DNA from: Eledone cirrhosa
Lineage: Eukaryota
Reading direction: 5' to 3'
Length of the DNA: 64,000 nucleotides
Assembly: GCA_964016885.1 (NCBI GenBank)
Contig: OZ024745.1
Location: forward strand, 126,418,001 to 126,482,000
Shown: positions 16,232 through 56,137 of the stretch, piece by piece
How positions within the stretch are numbered: position 1 is the first letter of the stretch
Layout of the letters: each line of letters begins with the position of its first letter
Translations under genes and position numbers: made by a program
The notes under the pieces: generated by a model
Database searches by the model: none
What the model was told of the DNA's origin: nothing
What the model saw: only the letters and a program-made list of their open reading frames with translations

Positions 16232-16292
16232 TATTCTATTATATATATTTCAAGGGTACCAAAACTTTGGTACGCCCTCATCAGATAAAATA
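16232..16292 (-). ncRNA. Minimal type-I hammerhead ribozyme, canonical core
   Basis: UAUUUUAU-CUGAUGA-GGGCGUACC AAAGUUUU GGUACCCUU-GAAA-UAUAUA-UA-AUAGAAUA. Stems I and II pair, stem III is palindromic, cleavage triplet AUA. Confidence 0.8.
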
Positions 16293-18652: not shown

Positions 18653-18697
18653 ATTTTATTATACATATTTCAGAGGTACGTCCTCATCAGACAAAAT
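18653..18697 (-). ncRNA. Type-I hammerhead ribozyme with shortened stem II
   Basis: AUUUUGU-CUGAUGA-GGACGUACCUCU-GAAA-UAUGUA-UA-AUAAAAU. Confidence 0.65.
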
Positions 18698-18800: not shown

Positions 18801-18853
18801 ATTTTGTCTGATGAGGACGTACTGTTGTACTTCTGAAATATGTATAATAAAAT
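18801..18853 (+). ncRNA. Type-I hammerhead ribozyme, canonical core
   Basis: AUUUUGU-CUGAUGA-GGACGUAC UGUU GUACUUCU-GAAA-UAUGUA-UA-AUAAAAU, cleavage triplet AUA. Confidence 0.8.
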
Positions 18854-53262: not shown

Positions 53263-53734
53263 CATGTATATATATATATTTATATATATATGTATATATA
53301 TATGTATATATATATACATTATATATATATATATGTATATATACATATACATGTATATATATATATATATATAAATATATGTATATATACACACACACAT
53401 AATATGTGTTTGCCTTCATGTTATTGCACGTGTTTGTAACCAGACGATATATAGTCGCCTGGTAAGCAAATTTAATATTTAGTTATATTCTAAACCTAAT
53501 ATCCTCTCTTCTGTGTACTAGATGAATAATAAATATTTAAAGGTCATGTTGCCTCCGATGTTTATCGTTTTTACACTAATTATCAAATTATCAGATTTAT
53601 TTTTAAAAAGTTATACGTAACATTCATACATTTCAAACGCCCCAAAAATGCAGGATACCCGACCAACCAAATATGCAGGATACACGGAAGCAAGATCTGC
53701 TGTTACAAATTCGAATTATAAACCTACTTCCAGC

Positions 53735-54335
53735 CACACAAATGAACTCTTTTGGCTTTACACCTACCATCATGCCGTTATAGTGCCGGCTACTTCCCAC
53801 ATCAGGGGACTCCCAAAGAGATCATTAAACATGGTTTGGACACCGCAGGCTTCCCTTCGCAACTTGAGATGGCGGGGCTGGGCCGAGGGGAGCAGAAGGC
53901 CAAATGGTATCACGATCTTCCTGTTCTCTTGTGGTAAGTCCCTCAACTCTAATGCAAAATGCGATGATCCTTTTTTCCAGCATCAATCTGGTGTATTTAG
54001 CGATAGACCCAGACTTCGATGCCTTACAAGAAGAACATTGCATTATGTCGAAGTATCAGCTGCTTTTTGACAGGTTAGTCGTCAAACCAATTCTGGTAGA
54101 GACATCCTGTGTTCTTAGCCCCGAGATCACCCACTTACACTCTTCTATCGAGGTCTTATTGGCCACTCACAAACGTGAGCACCGTCTGTTGGAATGGCAA
54201 TTTCAATGCGACTCCTTCGCCATCCTCTATTTTCTCCACTTTGACCCTTGTGATTACAAGACGGCTAGCGGCTAGGATTCTGCACACAAGGGTGCCTCCC
54301 ACGACACCTCCTAGGGCGTCCATTGGGGGTAGTTA
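53735..54335 (+). mobile_element. CRE-clade retrotransposon restriction-like endonuclease domain and 3' end, degenerate
   Basis: HLPSCRYSAG...IIKHGLDTAGFPSQLE..GL/RRPNGITIFLFSCGKSL.../KYQLLFDRLVVKPILVETSCVL, matching the Zn-knuckle plus R-P-D-G...D motif with frameshifts. Confidence 0.85.
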
Positions 54336-54432: not shown

Positions 54433-54463
<31 letters not shown>

Positions 54464-54781
54464 GTATATATATATATATATATATATAAAAACAAATAAC
54501 GAAACGAAATTAAATTTCGTTTCGTTTGTAACTCACTTTTGTATGACTGACGCTTAAACAATTAAGTTAAAAATGTACATCTACATATGCATACTGAAAT
54601 ACTAGTGTGTATATGAATACACACACGTATACATATGCAGATGTAACAAGTCTTTCACTGGTTGCTTTACTGTGAGCAACCCAGCTATTCTGTATGTAAA
54701 CACACAGACAAACCGGTTTTTAGAGTCATACTGGTTTTCGAGGAAACACCTTCCCTCTATTCTCCAGAAAGCCAGACAAGG

Positions 54782-54826
54782 AATATTGAACTAGTTTCGT
54801 TGTTGTTACAACTCATCAGCAATATT
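54782..54826 (-). ncRNA. Minimal type-I hammerhead ribozyme, fully canonical
   Basis: AAUAUUG-CUGAUGA-GUUGU AACA ACAAC-GAAA-CUAG-UU-CAAUAUU: 7-bp stem I, 5-bp stem II, palindromic stem III, GUU site. Confidence 0.88.
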
Positions 54827-55248
54827 TACCTATCTACCGGCCTTTCTGGAGAATTGTAAAAGCACATATCGTTATATGCTTTTTCTATGAAAATTAGTAG
54901 TGGGCAGACTAATTTGCATAGAGTGTGAGTACGCACCGGTTCAGCGGAGACGATAAAAACAAATAACGAAACGAAATTAAATTTCGTTTCGTTTGTAACT
55001 CACTTTTGTATGACTGACGCTTAAACAATTAAGTTAAAAATGTACATCTACATATGCATACTGAAATACTAGTGTGTATATGAATACACACACGTATACA
55101 TATGCAGATGTAACAAGTCTTTCACTGGTTGCTTTACTGTGAGCAACCCAGCTATTCTGTATGTAAACACACAGACAAACCGGTTTTTAGAGTCATACTG
55201 GTTTTCGAGGAAACACCTTCCCTCTATTCTCCAGAAAGCCAGACAAGG

Positions 55249-55293
55249 AATATTGAACTAGTTTCGTTGTTGTTACAACTCATCAGCAATATT
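55249..55293 (-). ncRNA. Minimal type-I hammerhead ribozyme, second identical copy
   Basis: Same sequence as 54782-54826. Confidence 0.88.
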
Positions 55294-55887
55294 TACCTAT
55301 CTAGTCTGCCCAAAAATATTGGTTAAAATACATGAAGATAAGCGGTTATATAGTGCAAATGTTATATGTGTGGCACGCATGTGCGTCTTGTTTATATAGT
55401 GTGGCAGAGAGATATGTGTGGTAGAGGCACTTAGGTAGGTAAATAAGAGTGTTAGGTTGGTAGATCTGGTGGCAAATTCTTTATATGATTGATATAGTCT
55501 GTGTGTGAAGAAATATTATAAGCATTAAAGATAGTGCAAGCATTAAAAGTGTTATAAGTAATGGAGATGCACAGCGCAGGGATGTCAAGTATTTCATGTA
55601 CTTCGGCATTTTCATGGTCAGGAGAGTGTATTTTTCGATTATATGCCCTTCACATAATCCACGACAATCCAGTTAGAGATCGTAGTCTGGTGATCTTTAG
55701 TTCGATACAGGAGGTTGTTACGTTTCTAGAAACGCCATTGAATACCGCCCGGAAGTGTGTGTGTGGCAAAGGGGAGTTAATGCATGCGGGGAGTTAACTC
55801 TGGGGTTTCCATATCTAGCCATTAAAATGTGTCCCAATGTCTCTCGGCTGAAAAGGAGGTCATATAACTGTCCATGCATTAATAAAT

Positions 55888-55934
55888 TGCTCCGAAGAAT
55901 CCAAACATCGGTTTGGAGGAAACAGCTGTAAGCA
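55888..55934 (+). ncRNA. Type-I hammerhead motif with U4C variant core
   Basis: UGCU-CCGAAGA-A-UCCAAAC AUCG GUUUGGA-G-GAAA-CAGCUG-UA-AGCA, GUA site. Confidence 0.65.
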
Positions 55935-56137
55935 CAATAATGTTTTGAGCAGTTCTTTGATTCTTATATTTCATATTTCATATATATATATATATATATA
56001 ACGAAGGAAGTGTGGTAAGGAACCAGATGGACCATAACGCACCAAAGTACTCAATACTTGAGGTAGTAGAGTGGGTAATAGGAACCAGAATTAGCCGTCG
56101 AAACGGCTTGAGCTCAGCTGTCGGGGTCTTACTGGTT

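Follow-up and report, generated by a model that had tools for sequence, protein, structure and literature searches.

A tandem hammerhead element of Eledone cirrhosa with the layout of a non-LTR retrozyme and a probable Penelope-type route of reinsertion

INTRODUCTION

In a 64,000-nucleotide stretch of Eledone cirrhosa DNA (contig OZ024745.1, hereafter the window), two hammerhead motifs lie within long direct repeats on the minus strand at 54486–55303, next to a (TA)n run. What kind of element is this, what RNA would it give, and how was it inserted? Our analysis suggests that it is a young, non-coding copy of 1.75 tandem units. Its hammerheads would release monomers of 467 nt, which are likely to form circles, and a reverse transcriptase (RT)/GIY-YIG protein of the Penelope type, supplied in trans, probably places the element back into (TA)n.

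RESULTS

Architecture of the locus

Sequence comparison showed that 54486–54836 and 54953–55303 are 351-bp direct repeats at an offset of 467, with 0 mismatches. By motif scan, each repeat was found to contain a type I hammerhead on the minus strand, the 5' one at 55249–55293 (C3 at 55286, H17 at 55256, GUU site) and the 3' one at 54782–54826 (C3 at 54819, H17 at 54789). Both have CUGAUGA (55286 and 54819), a 7-bp stem I, a 4-bp stem II (GUUG/CAAC) and GAAA; stem I of the 3' hammerhead extends further, with 54820–54851 pairing with 54759–54788. The two identical hammerheads named in the original prediction were therefore both found complete. The monomer between the two predicted cleavage sites, 54789–55255 on the minus strand, would be released as a 467-nt product running from 55255 to 54789, with 36% GC. 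When folded as a circle, it had a minimum free energy of -161.4 kcal/mol and was 68% paired (z = -10.6 against 60 dinucleotide shuffles).

The 116-bp segment that separates the repeats (54837–54952, minus strand, unit positions 304–419) recurs inside full-length tandem units of other copies. It also base-pairs with the first 30 nt of the unit, which lengthens stem I. The locus was therefore read as 1.75 tandem units (unit positions 420–467, 1–467 and 1–303), and the segment occurs once here because only 1.75 units are present. A reading of the repeats as two LTRs around a spacer was rejected, since 54837–54952 is part of the 467-nt unit and pairs with its 5' end. Stop-to-stop frames within the element did not exceed 70 aa, in agreement with the earlier statement that there is no credible ORF.

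This copy ends on its 3' side at site A (see below) within a (TA)n target, 54460–54487, which adjoins (TACA)n and (CA)n runs; other copies were found in like context. On the 5' side, an 11-nt inverted copy of unit positions 345–355 was read at 55302–55312 on the plus strand, and it is likely the stub of a second arm. The simplest reading of this end would be that the second arm was aborted or deleted later. With its two intact predicted ribozymes, this copy could itself be a source of new insertions. The broken frames at 53621–54275 (plus strand) of the window resemble, as we assume, the endonuclease end of a non-LTR retrotransposon.

Predicted ribozymes and selection on the RNA

In both hammerheads stem III consists of 2 bp and a 2-nt loop. 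Its sequence ACUAGU is self-complementary, with a duplex energy of -4.8 kcal/mol. According to PMC4209133, hammerheads with a palindromic short stem III are poor as monomers and active as dimers. Self-cleavage, dimer dependence and circular RNA are predictions here.

Rfam at the gathering score gave 0 matches in the 64-kb window, so the ribozyme call rests on the motif scan, conservation and covariation. No variant common to at least 4 of 130 insertions was found at any of the 11 core positions, and a full conserved type I core is present in each unit of the locus, as in non-LTR retrozymes. One stem II pair is swapped from U-A to A-U (46 versus 73 insertions). Pairing was kept in 20 of 37 inherited pair changes, compared with 18 of 62 singletons (p = 0.019), a count that includes columns 109–128, where indels blur the alignment, and that is drawn from related copies. 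The covariation is modest evidence of selection on the RNA. The cleavage site is GUC in older subfamilies.

Copy number and related families

The 3.0-Gb assembly was searched for further copies. The 36-nt ribozyme had 5,098 exact matches, compared with 0 for the reversed control. For the 467-nt unit, a DNA search gave 605 candidate places; among the 38 that were scored, one, on another contig (C3), was identical over all 467 nt. Identity among copies ranged from 100% down to about 85%, and up to 31 ribozymes were counted in one arm elsewhere in the genome, compared with two at this locus. Tandem units that each contain a single type I hammerhead and are spread genome-wide have the layout of a retrozyme, as had been proposed.

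A sister family with homology over the whole unit was also found. Its units are about 420–540 nt long (422–538), with a GUA or GUU site and a different stem II, and it keeps the retrozyme layout and both end sites described below (e.g. L063:7222-9901, L213–L224). The two families together gave 40,754 pattern matches (control, 52). Type I hammerheads of a third, unrelated family, with a palindromic stem III and an AUA site, lie in the window at 16240–16284 (minus), 18660–18690 (minus) and 18808–18846 (plus), the latter two forming a small head-to-head insertion that adjoins (TA)n; this pattern had 78,926 genome matches (control, 0). The three families account for about 120,000 motifs in 3.0 Gb, a number that variable-gap patterns may overstate somewhat.

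Two fixed ends and two head-to-head arms

A total of 136 insertions were mapped from the top DNA hits and the first places on contig C1 listed for the ribozyme and site-A patterns, after removal of loci that overlapped, of low-complexity hits and of one duplicate (L155). The 3' ends were found to lie at two constant positions inside the unit, A (unit 303) and B (224–236), some 70 nt from each other. Among 221 scored 3' ends, 124 were at A (unit 298–306), 88 at B (224–236) and 9 elsewhere, mostly in (TA)n; more than half of the mapped insertions were chosen for an A end, so that the share of A is not a genome estimate, and the second end was unselected. At the present locus, end mapping placed the 'tail' between site B (unit 229–234, 54560–54555) and site A (unit 303, 54486), i.e. 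at 54486–54560 on the minus strand, with a hairpin at 54498–54527. We infer that A and B are RT start sites.

Complete head-to-head insertions with two arms had the combination A+B in 78 of 85 cases, with 1 A+A and 6 others. This paired footprint with inverted arms was absent from the original prediction and is the most informative feature of the family. Two probable B+B insertions (G000:C1:121677810-121679660 and C1:141066906-141067660) are exceptions to the A+B rule. The genome-wide search that had been suggested as a check returned, besides the ribozyme copies, 2,220 exact junctions of site A with (TA)n (0 in the control). Site-B junctions numbered 566 on the forward strand; the reverse count of 1,155 was inflated by overlapping matches.

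Target duplications of about 12 nt, including junction homology, were observed where the target was not pure TA (L066, L074 and L116), and in most other insertions they are unreadable inside (TA)n. The family thus combines dispersal at high copy number with duplications of more than 4 bp when present, as do non-LTR retrozymes. It also has two alternative 3' ends and an inverted 5'-truncated arm, as do non-autonomous Penelope-like elements (PLEs). Fold-back synthesis was not accepted as the general origin of the second arm, because the central breakpoints usually differ and L070 contains two haplotypes. In L204, 65 unrelated bases were captured between the two arms, and a duplication longer than 35 nt flanks L166.

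As reported in PMC11167929, the Poseidon PLE protein of anole, a predicted dimer, cleaves AT-rich DNA on both strands and extends both, and its reverse transcription starts in vitro from two internal positions, between which the genomic tail lies. PLEs carry inverted 5'-truncated arms with the tail at one end only (PMC8557442). Because the footprint matches both sets of data, PLE-driven target-primed reverse transcription (TPRT) is the likely route, and by this analogy reinsertion is likely to be carried out by a Penelope-type RT.

Circular or linear template

If cleaved linear monomers were copied, 5' ends should accumulate at the cleavage site. It was found that 182 of 227 arms run through this site (99 of 132 when only arms selected without regard to the ribozyme are counted), and that 5 arms have 5' ends exactly at it, against 4.9 expected. 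Since 5' ends do not accumulate there and most arms cross it, cleaved linear monomers are not the main template. A mild excess of 5' ends was seen 3–30 nt downstream of the site (25 versus 13.6; nominal p = 0.003, p = 0.25 after scanning all windows), from which some cleaved linear templates are possible.

The median divergence of units was 0.8% within an arm, 0.8% between the arms of an insertion and 5.3% to other loci. The arms were within 2% of each other in 68 of 78 two-armed insertions, compared with 12% of between-locus unit pairs, and more than 2.5% apart in 7 of the 78, of which L070 clearly derives from two haplotypes. All 22 insertions with at least 3 full units differ from their nearest neighbour at two sites or more, although about 136 of several thousand insertions were sampled, so that 'own haplotype' does not mean private. 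In M101 (18 full units) and M103 (20), counted over both arms, the internal difference was 0–0.02%. These arrays and the identical full unit on C3 are in keeping with the youth that had been suggested for the element. A bottleneck of one monomer, with expansion during insertion, would explain these patterns simply, and the haplotype and array data fit rolling-circle copying of a circular RNA. We therefore regard circular RNA as the somewhat more probable template.

The most serious alternative is that the same PLE-driven insertion starts from an uncleaved linear multimer, with rare or late cutting, and that long arrays come from long sources together with unequal crossing-over and conversion. 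The anole data are in its favour: uncleaved RNA was the dominant substrate of the PLE, and ribozyme mutants were inserted normally in vitro (PMC11167929). An older arm of 30 units showed nested, period-3 common variants and two adjacent units with the same deletion, from which arrays evidently grow at the DNA level as well. Unit types alternate in L109 and L066. Unit-level variants common to both arms were found in 4 of 59 informative insertions, clearly in L068, and for some insertions this indicates a multimeric template. Nevertheless, this alternative would need repeated re-homogenisation, since each of the 22 multi-unit insertions has its own haplotype and most are nearly uniform within and across arms. 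The 116-nt segment pairs with the 5' end of the unit, as in a closed monomer, and the catalytic core is conserved. Insertion from a linear multimer was therefore considered unlikely, and copying of a circular RNA remains our preferred reading.

Penelope-like elements and the search for a partner

RT plus GIY-YIG frames of up to 844–938 aa, 97–98% alike within a family, are present in the genome. At least 4 PLE families have a Cys-rich linker before the GIY-YIG domain (L051, L052, L054, L058 and others), some with frames of 844–938 aa; they have (TA)n ends, head-to-head arms and their own hammerhead-like motifs with a palindromic stem III. By the linker motif described in PMC8557442, they would be of the Neptune type.

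Among 10,595 candidates, 150 hits were scored and 35 GIY-YIG loci were taken from them; none of these loci contained a pLTR with homology to the unit. Searches by blastn and nhmmer with family 1, family 2 and joint profiles against the 35 loci and against the window extended by 10 kb at both ends returned only retrozyme copies and low-complexity matches. A by-eye likeness of the tail to the T-rich ends of two Neptune-type families was dismissed as low-complexity, with positions that do not match. There is no RT frame in the 467-nt unit, and tblastn of 15 PLE frames gave 0 matches in the window and 10 kb on each side. An RT plus GIY-YIG frame between pLTRs, by which an autonomous PLE would be recognised, is thus missing from this element, and the earlier comparison with the tandem pLTR of such an element found no support in the unit or in the 35 loci.

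By sequence search, a neighbouring high-copy, two-armed Penelope-type insertion was located at 55311–55985, cut off at 55311 by the retrozyme junction and lacking about 280 nt of its own end. It is not homologous to the unit. It is young (1,865 candidate places, best 98–99%) and has two end sites about 140 nt apart, and RT-like and GIY-YIG-like frames adjoin other copies of it (L231 and L232). It may resemble the Hydra clade. As a partner or the origin of a template switch it was set aside, given its 140-nt tail and absence of homology.

The repeats might also be pseudo-LTRs or 5'-truncated remains of an autonomous PLE, as PLE-type ends, hammerheads with a palindromic stem III and the PLE fragment abutting the 5' end of this copy could suggest. 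However, units directly follow units in arrays of up to 30, only 2 of 45 checked one-armed segment ends abut PLE coding sequence, from two different families, and the neighbour belongs to an unrelated family joined via the inverted stub; this origin is very improbable.

Contigs of 4 public runs were also inspected; X1–X4 may come from the source sample. None of them bridges the whole locus, and unit-to-unit junctions were found in X4 and X5. With these junctions and the genome-wide copies, the initial caveat that the repeat might be an assembly duplication can be lifted. It is scarcely conceivable that the locus is a satellite duplicated locally, or an artefact of assembly, in which a ribozyme-like motif arose by chance, as the 100% identity of the repeats and the missing bridging contig could have indicated. 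The exact motif copies against an empty control, the same junctions in X4 and X5, the fixed ends and the covariation speak against it, and for the family it is refuted.

DISCUSSION

Comparison with known systems

The element fits every sequence criterion of non-LTR retrozymes in PMC7229834. Like metazoan non-LTR retrozymes (Cervera and de la Pena 2020, PMC7229834; Li et al. 2026, 10.64898/2026.07.22.740005), it is built of tandem non-coding units, each containing one type I hammerhead, has less than 45% GC, is highly self-paired, lacks LTRs and probably PBS and PPT, ranges from dimers to long multimers and shares its genome with PLEs. In contrast to them, its 467-nt unit is larger than the tested circles of 170–400 nt, while within the 51–972-bp range of predicted families, and the parts of those sources available describe neither internal ends at fixed positions nor two-armed A+B insertions nor a preference for (TA)n targets. 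The newt and axolotl satellite-2 retrozymes (PMC7229834) also have a short stem III and a very high copy number; sequence and host differ, and their dimers cleave better than monomers, a dependence that is predicted here. Among predicted retrozyme dimers of Xenopus, 1 of 9 cleaved in vitro (10.64898/2026.07.22.740005). Plant LTR retrozymes have a type III hammerhead, LTRs, PBS/PPT and a 4-bp duplication, whereas the present element has a type I motif in tandem units and falls outside that class.

With EN+ PLEs (Frangieh et al. 2024, PMC11167929; Craig et al. 2021, PMC8557442) the element shares two internal 3' ends and a tail, an inverted 5'-truncated second arm, partial tandems, an AT-rich or (TA)n target and a hammerhead near the ends. 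It differs in that the unit has no RT or endonuclease, the tail is about 70 nt compared with 30–40, and both start sites are inside the repeating unit, 229–303 nt downstream of the cleavage site. MRC1 and other non-autonomous Chlamys PLEs (PMC8557442) are likewise non-coding, multicopy, head-to-tail and PLE-made. However, Chlamys clades are described there as lacking canonical hammerheads and as having 3' ends in common with known autonomous partners, and no such partner was found here among the 35 loci.

Circles, tandem cDNA and mobilisation of retrozymes by PLEs were proposed already in 2020 (PMC7229834). The preprint of Li et al. (2026; 10.64898/2026.07.22.740005) argues for a PLE origin from co-occurrence and pLTR homology, mainly in vertebrates, and in its available part leaves the mechanism open. 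In the literature searched, to which supplements and Repbase/Dfam did not belong, we found no report of a cephalopod retrozyme or of a paired A+B footprint.

Proposed mechanism

A possible cycle can be outlined. Read-through transcription would yield tandem units. Two hammerheads, the motifs of which are observed, would exchange the strands of their palindromic stem III and cut at GUU, and a host ligase, as suggested by other retrozymes, would close the highly paired monomer. By analogy with the enzymology of anole Poseidon, a probably dimeric PLE protein would nick both (TA)n strands a few bases apart. As the observed footprint suggests, site A (unit 303) would prime one cDNA and site B (229–234) the second, usually on the same RNA haplotype. 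On a putatively circular template, each RT would pass the ligated cleavage site for about 0.3 to at least 20 units, and the two cDNAs would be joined head to head, which is the arrangement seen in the insertions. In its most specific form, one dimeric Penelope-type RT on one ribozyme-made circle would prime both (TA)n strands at two fixed points and roll in both arms, giving at least 20 identical head-to-head units per event; this form is put forward tentatively, as somewhat less probable than not.

Significance

Retrozymes are already known as a class. What this family adds is a set of direct insertion footprints: start sites used in pairs, arms that continue across the cleavage site, and as a rule a single haplotype in each insertion. 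For the design of RNA-templated insertion tools, a TPRT enzyme able to write a small circular RNA into (TA)n would be of interest. The 467-nt RNA gives base-exact predictions on whether retrozymes move via circles and on how PLE tails and inverted arms arise. If true, the rolling-circle reading would prove from genomic data that an animal circular RNA is reverse-transcribed by a rolling-circle route, and it would explain the one-sided tail of PLEs.
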